Positions 1 through 7,990 of a stretch of DNA of 12,127 nucleotides are shown in pieces. The translations under genes and the position numbers were made by a program. Source of the stretch: Verrucomicrobiota bacterium (GTDB lineage: Bacteria > Verrucomicrobiota > Verrucomicrobiia > Limisphaerales > CAIQOK01). The DNA lies in the NCBI GenBank assembly GCA_025363535.1, contig JANYDP010000269.1, positions 1-12,127 of the forward strand, in the 5' to 3' direction. Positions within the stretch are counted from its first letter, which is position 1. The number at the start of each line of letters is the position of its first letter. Under the pieces are notes generated by a model that saw only the letters and a program-made list of their open reading frames with translations, was not told the origin of the DNA and did no database searches.

Positions 1-1121
1 TTGTGCATGAGCGGTTGCGTGCAGTGATGCCCGCCGCGCAACGCCACGCCGCCTTGATCGGCCAGCGTCACCACGTCGTGCGCGTGGACGTCCTTGAGCA
101 GAAAGCTCACAAGCCCGGCGCGTCCGGTCTTCGGGCCGAAAAGGCGGATGTCCTTGAGCGCCGCCAGTTGGTCATAGGCGTAGTTCGCCAGTTCCTGATC
201 GTGCTGCCAGATGTTTTCGCGGCCGATGGCGTCGAGATAATCCATCGCGGCGTGCAAACCAATCGGGCCGGAGATGTCCGGCGTGCCGGCCTCGAACCGA
301 TGCGGCGCTTTCTTGAACTCGGTCTTGTGGTAGCCAACGGACAAAATCATTTCACCGCCGCCTTGATACGGCGGCATGGCGTCGAGCACTTCCGGCCGTC
401 CCCACAGCACGCCGATGCCGGTCGGCCCGCAAATCTTGTGTCCGGAAAACGCGAAGAAATCGCAGCCGAGCGCTTGCACATCTATCGGCATGTGACCTGC
501 GCTTTGCGCGCCATCCACAAGCGTGGTGATGCCGAGCTTGCGGGCGCGGGCGCAGAGTTCGGCGACGGGATTGACGGTGCCCATGGCATTCGAGATGTGA
601 ACCATCGCGAACATCTTCACCTGCTTGGTGAGCAGCGAATCGAGCGTGGACAAATCCAGAACGCCGTCGTCGCCGGTGACGGGGACGTAGGCGAGTTTTG
701 CGCCGGCACGCTGCGCGATCAACTGCCACGAAACGATGTTGCTGTGGTGTTCGACTTCGGTGAGCAGGATGACGTCGCCGGGCTTGAGGTTCGCCGCGCC
801 CCAAGCTGCCGCAACGAGGTTGATGCCTTCGGTGGTGCCGCGCGTGAAGATGATTTCGTCGGCGCTCTTGGCGTTGATGAACTTGGCGGCGCGCGTCCGG
901 GCAGCTTCAAAGGCGTTGGTGGAGCGGTTGCTCAACTCGTGGATGCCGCGATGGACGTTGGCGTTGTCGTGCTCGTAGTAATGGACGAGGGCGTCAATCA
1001 CCGCACGCGGCTTCTGCGACGTGGCGGCGTTGTCGAAATAGATCAGCGGCTTGCCGTGAACCTGCTGGTTGAGGATCGGAAAGTCGGCGCGCAGCCTCGC
1101 CCAATCAATGCTGTTCTTCAT
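1..1121 (-). CDS. sufS: Cysteine desulfurase SufS (group II aminotransferase class V). Start is ATG at 1121; the C-terminus is cut off by the left window edge.
   Basis: Manual translation of the minus strand from 1121 gives MKNSIDWARLRADFPILNQQVHGKPLIYFDNAATSQKPRAVIDALVHYYEHDNANVHRGIHELS...SGHKICGPTGIGVLWGRPEVLDAMPPYQGGGEMI...RFEAGTPDISGPIGL...RGGHHCTQPLM. The PLP-lysine motif SGHK and the active-site region RxGHHC are present, and the whole sequence aligns with E. coli SufS. The reading frame stays open to position 1, which is why it is absent from the supplied ORF track. Confidence 0.9.
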   Translation of the reverse strand, partial: MKNSIDWARLRADFPILNQQVHGKPLIYFDNAATSQKPRAVIDALVHYYEHDNANVHRGIHELSNRSTNAFEAARTRAAKFINAKSADEIIFTRGTTEGINLVAAAWGAANLKPGDVILLTEVEHHSNIVSWQLIAQRAGAKLAYVPVTGDDGVLDLSTLDSLLTKQVKMFAMVHISNAMGTVNPVAELCARARKLGITTLVDGAQSAGHMPIDVQALGCDFFAFSGHKICGPTGIGVLWGRPEVLDAMPPYQGGGEMILSVGYHKTEFKKAPHRFEAGTPDISGPIGLHAAMDYLDAIGRENIWQHDQELANYAYDQLAALKDIRLFGPKTGRAGLVSFLLKDVHAHDVVTLADQGGVALRGGHHCTQPLMH

Positions 1122-1211: not shown

Positions 1212-1763
1212 CTACATCAGCCCCAGTTGCAGCTTCGCCGCTTCGGTCAACATGCTCTGGTTCCATGGCGGATCCCAGACGAGTTCCACCGCCACGTCGT
1301 CCACGGCTTCGATGCACAGGAGTTTGTTCTGCACGTCTTGTTGCAGCACCGGCCCCATGCCGCAACCGGGCGCGGTCAAAGTCATTTTCACCGAGGCGCG
1401 GAAGCTGTTCGCGGCAATCGGCTCGACATGGCAGTCGTAGATCAAGCCGAGGTCCACGATGTTCACGGGGATTTCGGGATCGAAACAAGTTTTCAACTGC
1501 GTCCAGATTTCCTTCTCGACCTGTTCCTGCGTGGCCGGGCCGGAAGTGCCGCTGGAAGTTTTGGTCGCAACCTCCAGGCCCAGGGCATCGGCGTCCTTGC
1601 CTTCGATGCGGAACATGTTGCCGTTGACGATGACGGTGTAGCTGCCGCCAAGCGACTGCGTGATGTGCGCGGACTCGCCTTTTTGCAGCGTGACTTTGGT
1701 GCCAATGGGCACGACGGAGGCTTCCACATCGCGGATCAGACTGACTGGCTCGTTGCTTTGCAT
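1212..1763 (-). CDS. sufT: Long-form SUF-system Fe-S assembly protein SufT (DUF59/MIP18 C-terminal domain with an N-terminal extension), 183 aa.
   Basis: Internal ATG at 1763 gives MQSNEPVSLIRDVEASVVPIGTKVTLQKGE... The C-terminal half (EKEIWTQLKTCFDPEIPVNIVDLGLIYDCHVE...VKMTLTAPGCGMGPVL...) is a typical DUF59 Fe-S assembly domain. It sits between sufU and sufS. The upstream 36 codons of the track ORF (1764-1871) overlap sufU and are discounted. Confidence 0.75.
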   Translation of the reverse strand: MQSNEPVSLIRDVEASVVPIGTKVTLQKGESAHITQSLGGSYTVIVNGNMFRIEGKDADALGLEVATKTSSGTSGPATQEQVEKEIWTQLKTCFDPEIPVNIVDLGLIYDCHVEPIAANSFRASVKMTLTAPGCGMGPVLQQDVQNKLLCIEAVDDVAVELVWDPPWNQSMLTEAAKLQLGLM

Positions 1764-1786: not shown

Positions 1787-2242
1787 TTAATTTTTCTCGG
1801 ACTCGGTGGTCACGGACTGGTCTTCGCCTTTGATTGCAGCGATGAGCGCGTGCCACGACAAAATTGCACATTTCACCCGCGCCGGATAGCGGTAAACGCC
1901 CGCGAACACGGCCAGCTTGCCGACATCCCCGACGATCTTGCCGGTCATGATCATCTCGTGAACCTGGTCAAAGATCGCCTGGACTTCCGCCTTGGTTTTG
2001 CCTTTGACCGCATCGGTCAGCAGGGAGGCGGACGCCTTGGAGATGCAGCAGCCGGACCCAACGAAGCTGGCGTCCTGGATCACGTCGCCGTCGAGCGCGA
2101 GAAACAATTTGAGGTTGTCGCCGCACAGCGGGTTGTGACCCTGGGCCGTGCGCGTGGCCTGCGCCATCTCGTGAAAGTTGCGCGGCTTCTTGCAGTGGTC
2201 CAGGATGACCTGCTGGTAAAGGTCGTTGATGTCGTCGAACAT
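1787..2242 (-). CDS. sufU: SUF-system NifU/IscU-family Fe-S cluster scaffold / sulfur acceptor (SufU-type), 151 aa.
   Basis: ATG at 2242. The protein MFDDINDLYQQVILDHCKKPRNFHEM...HNPLCGDNLKLF...GSGCCISKASASLLT...VKCAILSWHALIAA carries the conserved Cys ligands (CGD, GCxIS, C-terminal Cys) of the SufU/IscU fold. It sits between sufD and sufT. Confidence 0.85.
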   Translation of the reverse strand: MFDDINDLYQQVILDHCKKPRNFHEMAQATRTAQGHNPLCGDNLKLFLALDGDVIQDASFVGSGCCISKASASLLTDAVKGKTKAEVQAIFDQVHEMIMTGKIVGDVGKLAVFAGVYRYPARVKCAILSWHALIAAIKGEDQSVTTESEKN

Positions 2243-2299: not shown

Positions 2300-3625
2300 T
2301 TACTTTCCTGCCAAGTGCGGATTTGCTTCGAGACGATCCCACACCAGCTTGTCCAGTCCCTCGCGGGCTGGTGCGCACTTGATGCGCTCAATGATCTCGC
2401 CGGCAAAGGCGTGGATGAGCATCCGCCGCGCGTTGTCCCGACCGATGCCCCGGGTGCGCAGATAAAAAATGGACTCGTCGTTCAGCTGACCGATGGTCGC
2501 GCCGTGCGTGCATTTCACGTCGTCGGCGTAAATTTCCAATTGCGGTTTCGTGTCGGCGGTGGCGTCGTCGGACAGCAAAAGATTTTTGTTCGTCTGCTTC
2601 GCGTCGGTTTTCTGCGCGATGGGATGCACGTAGATGCGCCCGTGAAAAACGCCCTTTGATTTGTCGTCGAGGATGCCGTTGAAATACTCGTGGCTGGCGC
2701 AATGCGGCTGCGCGTGCTCGACGATCATGTGATGGTCGGCGAGCTGTTCGTCCTTGGTGATGTAAAGGCCGTTCAGCACGCATTCCAAACCTTCGCCCGC
2801 AAGTTTGGTGCGGATGTTGGTGCGGGACAATTTCGCCCCGAGCGCGAAGGAGTGGATGTTCACGTTGCTGGCGCGGCCGAACTCGCCGGAGATCGTCGCC
2901 ATGTGAAACGCGGCGGCGGTTTCATCCTGCAACTTGACGTGTTCGACGTAGGCACTGTCGCCGGCGACGAGTTCCGTGACGGCGTTGGTGAGGTACGCCG
3001 CGCTGCCCGTGCTGAGGTAGCTTTCGATCACCGTGACGCGGCTGTTCGCCTCGGCGATGATGAGGTTGCGTGGATGGATCGCCGCGCCGGATTGCTTCGC
3101 GGACGACAGATAAATCAATTGCACCGGTTCTTCTACTGCGACTCCAGCGGGGACGAAAATGAACGCGCCGTCGGTGAAAAATGCCTGGTTCAACGCGGCG
3201 AAAGCGTTGTCCTTGGTCACGGCGTACTGGCCAAGATGCTTTTCGATCAGCGCGGAATCCTCGGTGAGCGCGGTCGCGAGGTTTTTTATTTTAACGCCAC
3301 CGGCTGCGGGCCTGGTCACGGAAAGTTTGGCCGAGAAAAAGCCATCCACGAAAACGAGCCGACTGCCGGACATGCCGGCAAGGATCGCCGCGCTCAAGGC
3401 CTGGGTTTCCGCGCCGTTCACCACGGTGGCCTGCGCAGGCTGGAACGGCATCTTCGCGATGGGCGCAATGTTGGTAAAGCGCCAGTCCTCGTGTTGCAAC
3501 GTGGGAAAACCCTGCGCGGTGAAACTGGCCAGGCCGGCCGAGCGCAGCGGCACGAGCCAGGCCGGCGACCCGGAGGGATTGGCCAACTGCTCAAATTTGG
3601 TCTGAAATGAATCGGTATTGTTCAT
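2300..3625 (-). CDS. sufD: Fe-S cluster assembly protein SufD (SufB/SufD family), 441 aa.
   Basis: ATG at 3625 gives MNNTDSFQTKFEQ... The C-terminal signature ...KPQLEIYADDVKCTHGATIGQLNDESIFYLRTRGIGRDNARRMLIHAFAGEI is characteristic of the SufBD family. The length (~440 aa) and the lack of an N-terminal Cys-rich SufB region favour SufD. The alternative upstream track start at 3670 adds 15 codons without support. Confidence 0.75.
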   Translation of the reverse strand: MNNTDSFQTKFEQLANPSGSPAWLVPLRSAGLASFTAQGFPTLQHEDWRFTNIAPIAKMPFQPAQATVVNGAETQALSAAILAGMSGSRLVFVDGFFSAKLSVTRPAAGGVKIKNLATALTEDSALIEKHLGQYAVTKDNAFAALNQAFFTDGAFIFVPAGVAVEEPVQLIYLSSAKQSGAAIHPRNLIIAEANSRVTVIESYLSTGSAAYLTNAVTELVAGDSAYVEHVKLQDETAAAFHMATISGEFGRASNVNIHSFALGAKLSRTNIRTKLAGEGLECVLNGLYITKDEQLADHHMIVEHAQPHCASHEYFNGILDDKSKGVFHGRIYVHPIAQKTDAKQTNKNLLLSDDATADTKPQLEIYADDVKCTHGATIGQLNDESIFYLRTRGIGRDNARRMLIHAFAGEIIERIKCAPAREGLDKLVWDRLEANPHLAGK

Positions 3626-3645
3626 GAAATGACGCGAGGCTTGCC

Positions 3646-3689
3646 CGCCAACGAACGGGCATTGTCCCACGCGCAGCCCGTTGGCGCAA
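3646..3689 (-). promoter_or_regulatory. Imperfect inverted repeat overlapping a putative sigma70-type promoter (TTGCGC-N17-GACAAT on the minus strand) in the sufD leader. Candidate operator for an Fe-S or iron-responsive regulator.
   Basis: Arms CGCCAACGAACGGGC (3646-3660) and GCCCGTTGGCG (3676-3686) are reverse complements with a 2-nt bulge. On the minus strand the -35 TTGCGC maps to 3684-3689 and the -10 GACAAT to 3661-3666, with a 17-nt spacer. The sufD ATG at 3625 lies ~35 nt downstream. Confidence 0.35.
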
Positions 3690-3805
3690 GTCCGCCGTGG
3701 GTGTGATTTAGAGGGGCGAAGCCATTGGTTCGTCTTAAGACCGGGGCCAACAAGTTAACCGCTTGGATTTTTGCGCTAAGGAAATGGTTTTCATTCCCTT
3801 TTCGT

Positions 3806-4060
3806 TTATTCCGCCGCCTTTGCTCTGAATGCTTTGCAGGTTCGGCACCAGCGCGCCTGGCCGAACGTGGCCCAGACGAGCAGATAAATTCCCGTGAGCG
3901 CGAGAATGATGCCCGGCACCCAGAACCCCGGAAAGACAAACGCCATCGCCACCGAAGCCGACATGCAAAGGCCGACGATGCTCAACCTAGCTCTGCTCTT
4001 TTGAATCATCTCGCCGCCGCACGATGGGCAGGAGAACTGCTTTTCAGCGGCTTTAGCCAT
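3806..4060 (-). CDS. Small (84 aa) membrane protein. It has an N-terminal CxxC pair, two predicted TM helices and a C-terminal CxxC pair (a split zinc ribbon around a TM hairpin). It is 7 nt downstream of the Mrr gene.
   Basis: ATG at 4060 gives MAKAAEKQFSCPSCGGEMIQKSRARLSIVGLCMSASVAMAFVFPGFWVPGIILALTGIYLLVWATFGQARWCRTCKAFRAKAAE. The hydrophobic segments and cysteine pairs are non-random. The upstream 16 codons of the track ORF would overlap the Mrr stop. Confidence 0.45.
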   Translation of the reverse strand: MAKAAEKQFSCPSCGGEMIQKSRARLSIVGLCMSASVAMAFVFPGFWVPGIILALTGIYLLVWATFGQARWCRTCKAFRAKAAE

Positions 4061-4067
4061 GTCTGAG

Positions 4068-4985
4068 TTATTCGACGCCAGCTTCTGTGGCAAAATAGTC
4101 TGAATCAATCCGCTTCACTTCGTAGGCAGCTTGTGGAGTAACGCCGATGTTGAAATCAATCATGAAGTCCGCAAGTTTTTCGCCATCAATCAGAACGATT
4201 TTGCTTTCGATTCTGGACGCGTAGTTCACCGCGTCTTTGGAAAAATCAGAAGTCGTTATGAAAATGCCTTTCCTGGCCCGCTGTCCCTGCAATGCTCCCG
4301 CGAACTTCTGAATTTCGGGGCGACCGACCGTCGCCTGCCAGCGTTTTGCTTGGATGTAAATGATGTCCAAACCCAGGCGGTCTTCTTTAATGATTCCGTC
4401 AATTCCTTCGTCGCCGCTTTGCCCGATGGCCTCTCCTGCATCTTTGAGCGAACCGCCGTAACCCATTTTCACGAGCAAATCCACGACGACACGCTCGAAG
4501 AACGATGGAGAGCATTTCTTTACCTGCGCGAGAATGTCTCTCGCAAGTGTTTTGCGGAGATTTTCGTACGCTGATTCGAGAGCTTCTTCAGGAGTTTGGC
4601 TTTCATCCTCGTTTGATGTTGGAGATTCTTCCGCTTCCTTTTTCTTGCTGCGCCATTCGACATAGTCAGGAAACGAACGCAGAAATTTCAGGTTGATTTT
4701 TGGTGGTTTCTTTTCAAGAATCTCGCGACCTCGTTGAGTAATTCCGAAAACTCCTCGGGCACGGTTTTCCAAAAGCCCAGCCATGCGCATGTGAACCCTT
4801 GCCCACGCGACGCGATTAGCCAGAACCCTCTGCTGTCCGCTTGGCAGTAGCTGCTTGCGCTCCTGCTCGGTCAGTTTGAAACGCGTTGCAATATTTTCGA
4901 TTGCTTCAGAGTTGTCGTGATCAATTCCATCGCCCGTAAATTCCAAAAGCGGCAGCATAATGGATTGAAAATCTGGAATTGGCAT
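4068..4985 (-). CDS. mrr: Mrr-family type IV restriction endonuclease (Mrr_N winged-helix domain plus Mrr catalytic domain), 305 aa.
   Basis: The N-terminal region MPIPDFQSIMLPLLEFTGDG...LTEQERKQLLPSGQQRVLANRVAWARVHMRMAGLL is Mrr_N-like. The C-terminal region CSPSFFERVVVDLLVKMGYGG...GDEGIDGII...DIIYIQAKRWQATVGRPEIQKF...GIFITTSDFSKDA matches the Mrr_cat PD-(D/E)xK core (D...EGIDG...QAKR). GC is ~45-48%, below the ~62% of the flanks. Confidence 0.85.
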   Translation of the reverse strand: MPIPDFQSIMLPLLEFTGDGIDHDNSEAIENIATRFKLTEQERKQLLPSGQQRVLANRVAWARVHMRMAGLLENRARGVFGITQRGREILEKKPPKINLKFLRSFPDYVEWRSKKKEAEESPTSNEDESQTPEEALESAYENLRKTLARDILAQVKKCSPSFFERVVVDLLVKMGYGGSLKDAGEAIGQSGDEGIDGIIKEDRLGLDIIYIQAKRWQATVGRPEIQKFAGALQGQRARKGIFITTSDFSKDAVNYASRIESKIVLIDGEKLADFMIDFNIGVTPQAAYEVKRIDSDYFATEAGVE

Positions 4986-4998
4986 AACTCTTTTCCAA

Positions 4999-6075
4999 TT
5001 AGCTTTTCAAAAACTCATCTAACGCCGCCTTGGTCACGCGCCAGGTCGAGCCAATCTTTTTGCCTTTGAGATCGCCTTTTTCCAGCGTGGCCAAAACGTC
5101 GGCTTCGCTCACGCCAAGGACGCGCGCCACGTCGGCAGAGCCGAGCAGTTCAATGGCACCACCGGCAATCACCGGCGGCACGCCACCTGCCGGCGCGGCG
5201 GACGGCGTGGCTTGCGGTTGATTCATCGAGGCCATCAGTTGCTGGCCCATCGCGAGGCCCGCGCCGAGTCCCGCACCGGTACCGGCCATTCCACCGGCTG
5301 CGCCGCCTTCTTTGGTCAGCGATTCGGCCATCTGGAATTTCACGTAGTCGTTGAGATTGCCAACGGCAGCCATGCTCGAACGCTTGTCAATCGCGGCCTC
5401 GACTTCGGGCGGCAGCGAGACATTTTCGACAATGAAGCTCGGAATCTCGATGCCGTATTTGGCGGTGACCTGCGGGTTGATGGCCGGCAGCAAGGCTTCG
5501 CCAAGTTCCTGATAGCGCGCGGCGATGTCGAGCACCGGCACTTTGGAGGACGCCAGCGCCTCGGTGAACACGCTGACGATGCGCGAGCGCATGGTGTCGG
5601 CGAATTCGTCGAGCCGGAAATGATCGTCCGTGCCGGCGACTTCCTTCAAAAAGGTTTTCACGTCCACGACCTTGAAATCAAACGTGCCGAAGGCCCGGGC
5701 GCGGACGATGCCGAAATCGGCGTCGCGCATCATGATCGGGTTGGACGTGCCCCATTTGTTGCCGGTGAAGAGGCGCGTGTTGACGTAGTAGAGGTCGGCC
5801 TTGAACGGCGAGTGCAGGCCGTATTTCCAGCCTTTGAGCGTGGAGAGGATCGGGATGTTGTCGGTGGTCAGCGTGTGTTTGCCCGGGCTGAAGGTGTCGC
5901 CAAACTGGCCGAGATACACGAACTGCGCGGTCTGCGATTCGCGGACGATGAGCTGCGCGCCGTTTTTGATTTCCTTGTCCTGGTCGGGATAGCGGAAGGA
6001 GATGGTGTCGCGGGAATCGTCCTGCCACTCGATGATTTCGAGGAACTGTGTTTTGAGATAATCCATGAGGCCCAT
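4999..6075 (-). CDS. SPFH/Band-7 domain protein (Band_7_1 / YdjI-like, 'virion core protein'-type) fused through a Gly/Ala-rich linker to a C-terminal excisionase-family (MerR-like) helix-turn-helix, 358 aa.
   Basis: ATG at 6075 gives MGLMDYLKTQFLEIIEWQDDSRDTISFRYPDQDKEIKNGAQLIVRESQTAQFVYLGQFGDTF...IEIPSFIVENVSLPPEVEAAIDKRSSMAAVGNLNDYVKFQMAE, which is an SPFH fold. A low-complexity GAAGGMAGTGAGLGAGLAMG linker follows. The C-terminus LLGSADVARVLGVSEADVLATLEKGDLKGKKIGSTWRVTKAALDEFL matches the HTH_17/excisionase DNA-binding consensus. The 91 upstream codons of the track ORF overlap the divergent gene and are discounted. Confidence 0.8.
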   Translation of the reverse strand: MGLMDYLKTQFLEIIEWQDDSRDTISFRYPDQDKEIKNGAQLIVRESQTAQFVYLGQFGDTFSPGKHTLTTDNIPILSTLKGWKYGLHSPFKADLYYVNTRLFTGNKWGTSNPIMMRDADFGIVRARAFGTFDFKVVDVKTFLKEVAGTDDHFRLDEFADTMRSRIVSVFTEALASSKVPVLDIAARYQELGEALLPAINPQVTAKYGIEIPSFIVENVSLPPEVEAAIDKRSSMAAVGNLNDYVKFQMAESLTKEGGAAGGMAGTGAGLGAGLAMGQQLMASMNQPQATPSAAPAGGVPPVIAGGAIELLGSADVARVLGVSEADVLATLEKGDLKGKKIGSTWRVTKAALDEFLKS

Positions 6076-6226
6076 AATTTTTTCTTTCGGTTTGGTTTTA
6101 ACGGTTGCCTGTTTTGTTGGCGGTATCATCGGGCGGGCGGCGCGGTCTGTGAAGTACAAATTAACGCGGGGAGTGTAACGGGAATGCGCTTGCGAATTGT
6201 CCGGGAAAAGGAAGAATGACGCCACC

Positions 6227-6982
6227 ATGTCAGCGGAAGCCCTCAACTGCCCGATGTGCGGCACACCGGTCGCCAGCCTTGATGCCACCGGGTGCGACCA
6301 TTGCGGCGCGCGACTGGCGACGGTGGCGTGTCCTTCGTGCTTCGGCATGATTTTTCAGGGCGCGAAGTTTTGTTCGCATTGCGGCGCGAAGGTGGAGCGA
6401 ACGGAGTTGGAGGACGCGACCAAGGCTTCCTGCCCGCACTGCCAACTCAGCCTTGAGGCGGTTACCGTCGGCAGCACCCGACTCAGCGAGTGTCCGAAGT
6501 GCGAAGGAATCTGGATGGACAACGCCTTGTTCAACGAGATTTGCGCCAACCGCGAAGAGCCGTCCGCCGTGCTGGGCATGGCTTTTTCGTTGCCACAACA
6601 TGAAGTGGGCTCGCTGGATTTGAAAGTGCGCTATTATCCGTGCCCAACCTGCAGTGCGCTGATGAACCGGGTGAATTTCGCGCATTGCTCGGGCGTGATC
6701 GTGGACGTCTGCCGCGACCACGGAACCTGGTTTGACAAGGATGAGTTGCGGCGGATCGTGGAATTTATTCGCAACGGCGGACTGGACAGGGCGCGGGCGA
6801 TGGAAATCGAGGAATTGAAGCGGCAACAGCAACAGCTCAAGTCCGCCCAAACCACCAGCGCGATGGAACCCGCTGCGGACTGGCACCACACCGTCGGCTG
6901 GCCCGGAACGAATCGCGATCTGGTGGGTGTGGGAGTTTCGGCCGCAGTGAATGCCCTGTTTGATCTTTTCAATCGACGCTGA
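6227..6982 (+). CDS. Multi-zinc-ribbon protein, 251 aa. It has four N-terminal CxxC pairs, then two TFIIB-type zinc ribbons (zf-TFIIB-like), then a short Gln-rich helical tail.
   Basis: The ATG at 6227 is preceded by AAAAGGAAG (6206-6214). The N-terminus MSAEALNCPMCGTPVASLDATGCDHCGARLATVACPSCFGMIFQGAKFCSHCGAKV carries the four CxxC pairs. Two modules follow: CPHCQLSLEAV...CPKCEGIWMDNALFNEI, and CPTCSALMNRVNFAHCSGVIVDVCRDHGTWFDKDELRRIVEF. The CxxC...(I/V)D.C..C.G.W.D..EL pattern is the zf-TFIIB hallmark. The track ORF starts earlier at a TTG (6197). Confidence 0.75.
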   Translation: MSAEALNCPMCGTPVASLDATGCDHCGARLATVACPSCFGMIFQGAKFCSHCGAKVERTELEDATKASCPHCQLSLEAVTVGSTRLSECPKCEGIWMDNALFNEICANREEPSAVLGMAFSLPQHEVGSLDLKVRYYPCPTCSALMNRVNFAHCSGVIVDVCRDHGTWFDKDELRRIVEFIRNGGLDRARAMEIEELKRQQQQLKSAQTTSAMEPAADWHHTVGWPGTNRDLVGVGVSAAVNALFDLFNRR

Positions 6983-6994
6983 TGCCGCGCCGGT

Positions 6995-7990
6995 TCATTT
7001 TTGAATCACCGCCTCGCCCGTCACCACATCCAGCGTCCACGGCTTCGGTTCAGGCAGCGCAAGTTTTCCGTCGCCGATTTCCAACGGCATCCAGAGATAG
7101 CGCGAATCCCATTGTGTTGCGGGTTTCCAGATGTCGCCCATGAAAATCACCGTGGTCGCTTTGGTGCCGACCACTTTGACCATCATCGTGGATTGCGCGC
7201 CAAAGGTGTTTTTTTCCGGCGGCGCGATGTCCTTGAACTCCGACCACGGGCCTTCGAGTGATTTTGCGGTAGCGTATTTGTTCGGGTTGGCATTCCAGCC
7301 GGTCAACGCCGAGCCGATGGCGTAATAAAGCCCTTGGTAATGCACGACCGCACCACCTTCCATGTGCATCGGTATGAGACACATTTCTTTTTCAACATCG
7401 AGATAATCATCGGACAACTTCACGATGCGGAAACCAAACGGACGGTCCTCAAAAATCAAATACGCCGTGCCGTCGTCGTCCACGAACTGCCCGATGTCGC
7501 GGCTTTCGTGGCCGAGCGGACGGAAGCTTTTCACCCATTGATAATCACCGTCCACCGTGTCGCTCACCGCCACGCCGACGCGGGCGAGTTTATAACCCTC
7601 ATCGTCCACATGCATGTACATCACGAACTTTTTTGTCTTCGCGTTGTAGAAAACTTTGGGCCGCTCAAGAATCCAGCCTGCATGGAAATGTTCGGGATCG
7701 TACACTTTGAGGGCATGTTTACGGAACGTCCATTGCGCGAGATTCGTCGAGGAATAGCAACTGACGTAGCGGTAGGTGGGATTCAATCCGCGTGAACGTT
7801 CCTCGCCAAACCAATAATACGTGTCGCCAACTTTGAGGATGCCGCCGCCGTGCGCCTGTATGTGTTGGCCGCGATCATCGGGCCAGAGTTCGCCGGGCTG
7901 GATGAGCTGGGGCACCGCGCCCGCGTTGAGGAGAAGCAATGAAAACAGTGCGCCGAAAATCTGGGATGTCCGCAAGGCGCTTGATTGCAT
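6995..7990 (-). CDS. Secreted glycoside hydrolase, GH43-like five-bladed beta-propeller, with an N-terminal signal peptide, 331 aa.
   Basis: ATG at 7990 gives MQSSALRTSQIFGALFSLLLLNAGAVPQ, a signal peptide. The mature part (WPDDRGQHIQAHGGGILKVGDTYYWFGEE...YRYVSCYSSTNLAQW...VDDDGTAYLIFED...) resembles GH43/GH117-type propeller hydrolases, with a catalytic Asp near the N-terminus and repeated D/E-containing blades. The family call is motif-based only. Confidence 0.6.
   Translation of the reverse strand: MQSSALRTSQIFGALFSLLLLNAGAVPQLIQPGELWPDDRGQHIQAHGGGILKVGDTYYWFGEERSRGLNPTYRYVSCYSSTNLAQWTFRKHALKVYDPEHFHAGWILERPKVFYNAKTKKFVMYMHVDDEGYKLARVGVAVSDTVDGDYQWVKSFRPLGHESRDIGQFVDDDGTAYLIFEDRPFGFRIVKLSDDYLDVEKEMCLIPMHMEGGAVVHYQGLYYAIGSALTGWNANPNKYATAKSLEGPWSEFKDIAPPEKNTFGAQSTMMVKVVGTKATTVIFMGDIWKPATQWDSRYLWMPLEIGDGKLALPEPKPWTLDVVTGEAVIQK

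Follow-up and report, generated by a model that had tools for sequence, protein, structure and literature searches.

The sequence in front of sufD in a Verrucomicrobiota lineage: a probable extended -10 promoter with a most likely incidental inverted repeat

Does the inverted repeat in front of the suf genes of this Verrucomicrobiota bacterium serve as a repressor operator, as the initial annotation had proposed, or is it a chance feature of a promoter that works without it? The window, that is, the whole stretch of 12,127 nt analysed here, contains, about 20 nt 5′ of sufD, a 15/11-bp inverted repeat, together with promoter-like hexamers, and all coordinates that had been given for them proved correct. 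From a comparison with relatives, we conclude that positions 3646-3689 are probably the native promoter core of the sufDUTS operon, read on the minus strand, and that the inverted repeat is most likely incidental to it. This gives a firm promoter annotation for the sufDUTS operon in an uncultured soil/peat Verrucomicrobiota lineage.

The best matches to SufD in genome and metagenome collections are from Verrucomicrobiota MAGs of subdivision 3, of the Pedosphaera/Limisphaerales type. A look-up of the exact SufD protein gave no hit, and the exact SufU was present on a single 1.6-kb Logan contig only. In the window, sufD (2300..3625, minus strand, with the ATG at 3625-3623) encodes 441 aa with the Pfam domains SUFBD_core (E = 2e-86) and SufBD_N (E = 1.3e-22), and its orthologues have the same start point. 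It is followed on the same strand by sufU, the second gene of the operon, for a NifU_N scaffold protein (1787..2242, Pfam NifU_N, E = 1.5e-21), by a sufT-like gene with a FeS_assembly_P/DUF59 domain (1212..1763, Pfam PF01883, E = 2.6e-12), whose product has 183 aa here as in the relatives, and by the cysteine desulfurase gene sufS (1..1121), which is cut by the end of the window and was identified from its translation. The latter is 82-88% identical to the sufS located 3′ of sufT in relatives, and its orthologues carry the Pfam domain Aminotran_5. The gene order sufD-sufU-sufT-sufS is kept in the relatives. In several close relatives, a gene for a RelB-like antitoxin is found between sufU and sufT (L162 8214-8405, L167 9887-10322, L171 2295-2730, L172 2171-2606), and a ParE toxin gene comes after it in L167, L171 and L172; the suf operon of the window has no such insertion.

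Neither sufB nor sufC nor a Fur-family gene was found in the 12-kb window. Distant relatives (SufD identity of 64% or less) have sufB, sufC and sufD side by side; in the window's own clade, sufD is split off from sufBC, with an upstream region of its own. Directly 5′ of the sufD promoter lies a block of low G+C content, here called the island (3750-6350, G+C 0.47-0.51 vs about 0.60), whose genes are co-oriented with sufD. It carries on the minus strand a small zinc-ribbon membrane ORF (3806-4063), a gene for a methyl-directed restriction enzyme of type IV that is similar to Mrr (4068-4985, PADLOC mREase_IV, E = 1.5e-89) and a gene for an SPFH/Band-7 protein whose C-terminus carries an HTH_17 domain (4999-6348 as the ORF is listed). 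On the plus strand, opposite to the island genes, a 261-aa double zinc-ribbon protein (DZR, Zn_ribbon_TFIIB) is encoded at 6197-6982, and since this gene overlaps the 5′ end of the listed SPFH ORF, the true SPFH start probably lies further downstream. A scan of 3400-4200 for terminator-like sites (a GC stem plus a U tract) returned none, such that no intrinsic terminator is predicted between the island genes and sufD. Since the island genes are also co-oriented with sufD, read-through from the island could add to sufD expression.

Read on the minus strand, the DNA 5′ of sufD has the form GGAC TTGCGC CAACGGGCTGCGCG TGG GACAAT GCCCGTTCGTTGGCG GGCAAGCCTCGCGTCATTTC ATG. The -35 hexamer TTGCGC (3684..3689) and the -10 hexamer GACAAT (3661..3666), both read directly from the sequence, are separated by the 17-nt spacer CAACGGGCTGCGCGTGG (3667..3683), which ends in GCGTGG. 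The last three nucleotides of the spacer, TGG (3669-3667), have the form of an extended -10 element; promoters of this kind carry TGn, or TRTGn, which is known as the '-16 region' of Gram-positive bacteria. From standard sigma-70 geometry, a transcription start zone is predicted at 3652..3656, 5-9 nt past the -10. It is followed by a short 5′ leader (3626..3651, direct read), in which no Shine-Dalgarno sequence is recognisable before the sufD ATG, just as in the relatives. Among the relatives, each group has its own leaders, most of them AT-rich, for instance GGTCTAATTnnTnnnATTGGAC and CCGATTTGAAAGATTGAGATTTACC. Around the start of sufD, the minus strand also contains an 8-nt direct repeat, TCATTTCA, with copies 22 nt apart at 3603-3610 and 3625-3632 that overlap codons 7-9 and the start codon; it is probably a chance repeat, since the second copy is lost in L164 and L166.

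By E. coli rules, the hexamers are weak: they match the consensus at 3/6 positions in the -35 and 4/6 in the -10, thus at 7/12 in total, and a sigma-70 consensus scan of 3400-4200 with a threshold of 9/12 did not call them. The hexamers chosen in the initial annotation are nevertheless conserved upstream of sufD, with the same 17-nt spacing. It is for this conservation, not for the quality of the match, that we accept them as real.

To arrive at this, loci were collected in scans of genomes and metagenomes, in which the best SufD identity was 78-80%. As these first relatives came no closer, further ones were fetched via a protein search; they have SufD identities of 94, 90, 90, 88, 87, 86, 85 and 85% and were aligned with the window. 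The pattern TTGCRC-N14-TGR-nAnAnT is found upstream of sufD in 59-65 Verrucomicrobiota loci that have no preceding sufC, with SufD identities ranging from 58 to 94% and the spacing fixed at 14+3 nt. A looser pattern, TTG[CA][GAC]C-N14-TG[GAC]-nAnnnT, occurs upstream of sufD in 65 loci. The remaining loci that could be judged comprise 48 with sufC directly upstream and 36 others with a split sufD, most of which show variants of the pattern with one mismatch or a 16-nt spacer. A stricter version of the pattern has 59 matches on both strands of 1.28 Mb of sampled DNA, every one of them upstream of sufD (59/59), and none in shuffled sequences.

The conservation goes beyond what the search patterns enforce. 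Position 4 of the -35 is C in 65/65 loci, though the pattern permitted A; C at -17 (60/65), R at -16 (65/65) and A at position 4 of the -10 (59/65) were likewise unconstrained. None of the 65 aligned relatives lacks the TGR, and 45 of them have a G five nt past the -10. Among the nine closest lineages, the -35 is invariably TTGCGC, and the -10 of the closest relatives is GACAAT, AACAAT, GAGAAT or AAAGAT, such that nAnAnT or nearly so is maintained. The 5′ part of the spacer is free to vary, and together with the upstream flank and the leader it differs between groups of relatives; in dozens of them, the flanks around the promoter elements are otherwise unalignable. Conserved hexamers around a free spacer are the footprint that a promoter with an extended -10 would leave, and the earlier proposal of a suf promoter at this place is borne out by the persistence of the hexamers and the TGG in dozens of relatives.

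Furthermore, the nine closest lineages keep the promoter elements unchanged or nearly so, whereas their upstream genes differ in every case, which argues that the promoter module travels with sufD. Resemblance to the window breaks off some 25-30 nt 5′ of the -35, and the edge of the promoter is thus a recurrent breakpoint of rearrangements. The gene 5′ of the sufD promoter in close relatives is variously a pair of histidine kinase and response regulator genes, hisD, a DUF6941 gene or a hypothetical gene; in many of the more distant relatives, this place is taken by a divergent gene for an Mrp/ApbC (NUBPL-type) Fe-S carrier ATPase. Upstream genes of these kinds are found at L162 4349-6169, L164 6226-7512, L166 7428-7832, L167 7297-7638 and L027 4809-5849, among many others.

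How does this promoter compare with known ones? Like sigma-70 extended -10 promoters, it has a TTG in the -35, a 17-nt spacer, a TG one base ahead of the -10 and A2 and T6 in the -10, lies about 60 nt 5′ of the first gene of an operon and combines fixed hexamers with a free spacer. It deviates from the canonical form in that its -35 is TTGCRC instead of TTGACA and its -10 G/A-A-n-A-n-T instead of TATAAT, and in that the G-C-R ahead of the TG is unusually conserved at sufD promoters. With its hexamers, TG and conservation, it qualifies on sequence grounds as a promoter of the sigma-70-type extended -10 class, its start site being predicted. We infer that RNA polymerase uses these elements, presumably with a factor of the sigma-70 type, and that it begins at the predicted position. 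In this lineage, sufD has parted from sufBC and would have its own promoter, TTGCGC-17 nt-GACAAT with an extended -10 of the TRTGn type, from which transcription would start about 5-9 nt past the -10 and give a leader of about 27-31 nt devoid of a Shine-Dalgarno sequence. In some relatives, the motif 'TTGCAC ... TTGCA' brings to mind a sigma-54 promoter, whose consensus has a 5-nt spacing and a GG; by eye, this reading was rejected, because the spacing is 9 nt instead of 5 and the GG is absent.

The unusual conservation raises the possibility that TTGCRC-N11-GCRTGR-nAnAnT is more than a set of RNA polymerase contacts and serves a factor dedicated to the split sufDUTS operon across this clade, be it an alternative sigma factor or an activator or repressor that senses Fe-S or iron and recognises the -35 and -16 regions; in that case, the dyad would be irrelevant as well. 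In the -35, C4 and C6 are indeed conserved beyond the needs of generic sigma-70, and so is the G-C-R; in about 1.3 Mb of DNA from Verrucomicrobiota, the signature was seen solely 5′ of sufD, and the fur-sufB promoters of relatives carry the canonical TTGACA instead. However, purifying selection is expected to keep the exact bases of orthologous promoters, and TTG, TG and A2/T6 are exactly the bases that sigma-70 reads. The apparent exclusiveness of the signature must also be seen against the fact that the regular-expression test is powerless for generic promoters: the TTGACA-type pattern is not enriched in the sampled loci either (42 matches vs 43-67 in shuffles). The single extra match away from sufD, located upstream of a putative purF, corresponds to the number that shuffles or chance predict. 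We therefore regard a dedicated factor as unlikely, though worth bearing in mind, and hold to a promoter of the sigma-70 type. As to that extra match to TTGCRC-N14-TGR-nAnAnT, it is found at L014 1074-1102 (TTGCGC...TGGGACAAT), and the ORF that follows about 20 nt past it begins with MQTDYPKHYCGVFGIFGHP, which we take to be the start of amidophosphoribosyltransferase (PurF).

If the promoter is real, is the inverted repeat part of its control? Arm 1, CGCCAACGGGC on the minus strand (3676..3686; GCCCGTTGGCG on the plus strand), lies in the 5′ part of the spacer and covers the last 3 nt of the -35. Arm 2, GCCCGTTCGTTGGCG on the minus strand (3646..3660; CGCCAACGAACGGGC on the plus strand), begins directly after the -10, spans the predicted start site and reaches into the 5′ leader, and the sufD ATG is 20 nt beyond it. 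Without gaps, 8 bp pair perfectly (3646-3653 with 3679-3686); with a 4-nt bulge, 11 bp do so. Arm 2 and the bases following it additionally form a local palindrome, TGCCCG-N8-CGGGCA.

For DNA of this kind, such symmetry is ordinary. With a gapped local inverted-repeat score (match +2, mismatch -3, gap -2) applied to segments of 60 nt, the dyad site scores 20-22. There are 22 distinct places in the 12-kb window that score at least 20 and 12 that score at least 22, thus equal or better; 3.5% of all 60-nt segments of the stretch reach 20, as do 7.5% of the dinucleotide shuffles of the same 60 nt. The symmetry of the dyad is thus no greater than the genome background. Across the window and 172 loci, the dyad is found once more only at the orthologous site in L164/L165, which is also the only place among these loci where the 8+8 core recurs; within this DNA, no further copies that might define a regulon were seen. 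Arm 1 has no second copy within the window, and the search for copies of the arms or the dyad gave, in addition, one weak and unrelated 5+5 match at 7826-7869, as is expected by chance.

The comparison with relatives is more telling still. In 69 orthologous promoters aligned on the -35, a strong dyad is present in the window only and lacking in the other 68. The mean inverted-repeat score of the orthologous promoters is 12.3, as compared to 13.3 for the background of the same loci, and the window is the sole outlier. A leader of the window type is common to the five closest lineages (87-94% SufD identity), and within these the pairing of the arms decays: measured against the 11/11 arm pairs of the window, 9/11 are kept in L162 (SufD identity 94%), 8/11 in L164 (90%), 6/11 in L168 (90%), 9/11 in L166 (88%) and 9/11 in L169 (87%). 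The 15 substitutions that the arms have undergone in these five lineages include no compensatory change, and where both partners of a pair have changed, they now read A·A or C·T. With the window counted as a sixth lineage, 12 of the 26 columns of the arms are variable (6/11 in arm 1 and 6/15 in arm 2), as compared to 20/40 in the flanks and 2/13 in the -35, TGG and -10 taken together. Relatives at 85-86% SufD identity have a different leader and miss arm 2 entirely. L015 retains arm 1 at 10/11 positions and has nothing complementary downstream. Conversely, the CGTTCGnT of arm 2 is common to relatives without the dyad ('group A'), in the same register after the -10, which places this part in the start-site region rather than in one half of a symmetric site. 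Footprinting of the suf upstream regions, which had been suggested along with the operator, thus shows that the dyad is not kept, the result that had been named as refuting an operator.

Could the dyad, or its outermost CGCCAA...TTGGCG, nonetheless be an operator specific to this lineage, at which a dimeric repressor with its gene elsewhere in this genome would occlude the spacer and the start site? The arms are placed as in a repressor site, and the chance of finding such a dyad in any one 60-nt segment is about 1.5-3.5%. Moreover, the outermost CGCC...GGCG pairs are invariant in the six closest lineages, as a short residual symmetry, and the 8+8 core is shared with L164/L165. However, the conservation of these outer bases is accounted for by their overlap with the -35 and with a conserved stretch of the leader, the arms are as variable as the flanks and devoid of compensatory changes, and a dozen comparable dyads exist within the same 12 kb. 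The absence of the dyad from the 68 other orthologous promoters, the failure to find further copies in the window or the 172 loci and the lack of an adjacent regulator gene in the window or the relatives likewise speak against it. On this evidence, an operator at the dyad is distinctly improbable. In our preferred reading, that of a promoter with an incidental repeat, the dyad would be a by-product of one arm lying in the freely varying spacer and the other in the start-site and leader region, with full complementarity arising in this genome only. An attractive 'operator geometry' can appear by chance in DNA of 60% G+C, and for this reason dyads need to be compared with relatives before a regulatory role is assigned to them.

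The dyad also does not resemble the operators of known suf regulators. Fur-family boxes in Bacillus subtilis are of the 7-1-7 type, TGATAATnATTATCA for Fur and TTATAATnATTATAA for PerR, and a palindrome of this type, TTAGAATnATTCTAA, is present at suf promoters of relatives. The dyad of the window shares with these sites its position at a suf promoter, and in a group of relatives termed 'group B', TTAGAATnATTCTAA itself is in a repressor position. Unlike them, however, the dyad is GC-rich, has arms of 11-15 nt that are 15 nt apart and a bulge, and has no sequence in common with them. The reading as a Fur-type box was rejected because of this composition and because TTAGAATnATTCTAA has no match in the window.

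The operator of cyanobacterial SufR is a perfect palindrome, CAAC-N6-GTTG, and SufR is reported only from Cyanobacteria and some Actinobacteria (reviewed in PMC8593673). The arms in the window also hold an inverted CAAC and GTTG upstream of suf genes, but their spacing is 27 nt instead of 6, and no gene for a DeoR-type SufR is adjacent; as CAAC-N27-GTTG, the site was rejected as a SufR site. Thus, the dyad matches neither the Fur nor the SufR form.

IscR type 2 sites have a CCC...GGG symmetry, which is loosely echoed by the local palindrome TGCCCG-N8-CGGGCA, though with a spacing that is off by one nt from the consensus. The type 2 sites that IscR has at sufA and hyaA of E. coli are degenerate imperfect palindromes, which at suf promoters lie over the -35 (PMC8593673), whereas the palindrome in the window is downstream of the -10 and not at the -35. 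The palindrome is also unconserved, being broken in L162, L164 and L168, and no Rrf2 gene was seen nearby; hence, this reading was set aside as improbable.

That the repeat acts as RNA, either as a hairpin in transcripts reading through from the island or as a leader structure that hides the start codon, is highly improbable: the co-oriented island genes without a predicted terminator before sufD, a local hairpin UGCCCGUU/GGCGGGCA in the minimum-energy fold and a GUUCGU:AUGAAC pairing in the consensus fold would fit such a role, but the dyad region folds no better than its shuffles (z = -0.3), the leaders of six lineages share only a weak consensus fold (-7.8 kcal/mol, no compensatory pairs), the local palindrome is broken in the three relatives just named, Rfam covariance models gave no match to the region at E up to 1, and arm 1, being upstream of the predicted start, would be absent from the main transcript.

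If not by this dyad, how might suf genes be regulated in these bacteria? In agreement with the initial annotation, no gene for a Fur, Rrf2/IscR or SufR-type regulator was found in the window, nor is a candidate of these types encoded beside sufD in close relatives. Within the window, a DNA-binding domain is present in the SPFH protein of the island alone, namely its HTH_17. L162 and L163 have a divergent pair of histidine kinase and response regulator genes, which the other lineages lack. In the literature searched, no described suf regulator was found for the phylum.

Relatives with contiguous sufBCD present a different picture, in that a Fur-family gene (Pfam FUR, E = 4.9e-22) lies directly 5′ of sufB. 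Upstream of this gene, about 20 loci carry aTTTAGAATnATTCTAAgTATTGACA, a perfect 7-1-7 palindrome; at these heads of fur-sufB-sufC-sufD operons, the palindrome TTAGAATnATTCTAA abuts a canonical -35 (TATTGACA). Examples of loci with TTAGAATnATTCTAA are L021 2896, L029 2744, L044 2651, L046 3159, L052 2979, L057 2628, L066 1818, L070 3135 and L071 3207; further ones are L003 5966, L004 5960, L005 5966, L067 5960, L085 2942, L087 2949, L097 2966 and L102 356. At the split sufD of a dozen relatives, the same palindrome follows the -10 and precedes the ATG, as it does in 'group B'. Allowing up to 2 mismatches, TTAGAATnATTCTAA has 34 matches in 1.28 Mb, 12 of which are just 5′ of a split sufD and 21 at the heads of fur-sufBCD operons; the remaining one, in L041, has 2 mismatches and is 912 nt upstream of sufD. 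With at most 1 mismatch, no match was found outside suf promoters in the 1.28 Mb.

TTAGAATnATTCTAA is the only operator-like element that was found at the suf promoters of the relatives, and together with the Fur-family protein it is a candidate suf regulon across Verrucomicrobiota. This regulon does not extend visibly to the lineage of the window: even with 3 mismatches allowed, TTAGAATnATTCTAA is found nowhere in the window, and it is also absent from the vicinity of sufD in L162-L172. The earlier suggestion that an iron-type regulator of suf is encoded outside the window is thus compatible with the fur-sufBCD arrangement of the relatives, but their AT-rich palindrome has no relation to the GC-rich dyad. 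It could be that the lineage of the window lost the Fur-type palindrome and then recruited a repressor of its own to the GC-rich dyad, as a weaker variant of the idea of a dedicated control device. As other groups of relatives have conserved leader sequences of their own, control of the split sufD operon has diversified, and no operator can be named for the lineage of the window. More useful than the result on the dyad may be that TTAGAATnATTCTAA and the fur-headed sufBCD operon provide a testable candidate for the control of Fe-S assembly in this phylum.

A last observation concerns two distant relatives, in which long inverted repeats, CCACGAATGAACAC ... GTGTTCATTCGTGG, fill the space from the Fur-family gene to sufB (L052 at about 3480-3620 and L159 at about 470-610). 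They may represent a structured element or an inserted repeat.
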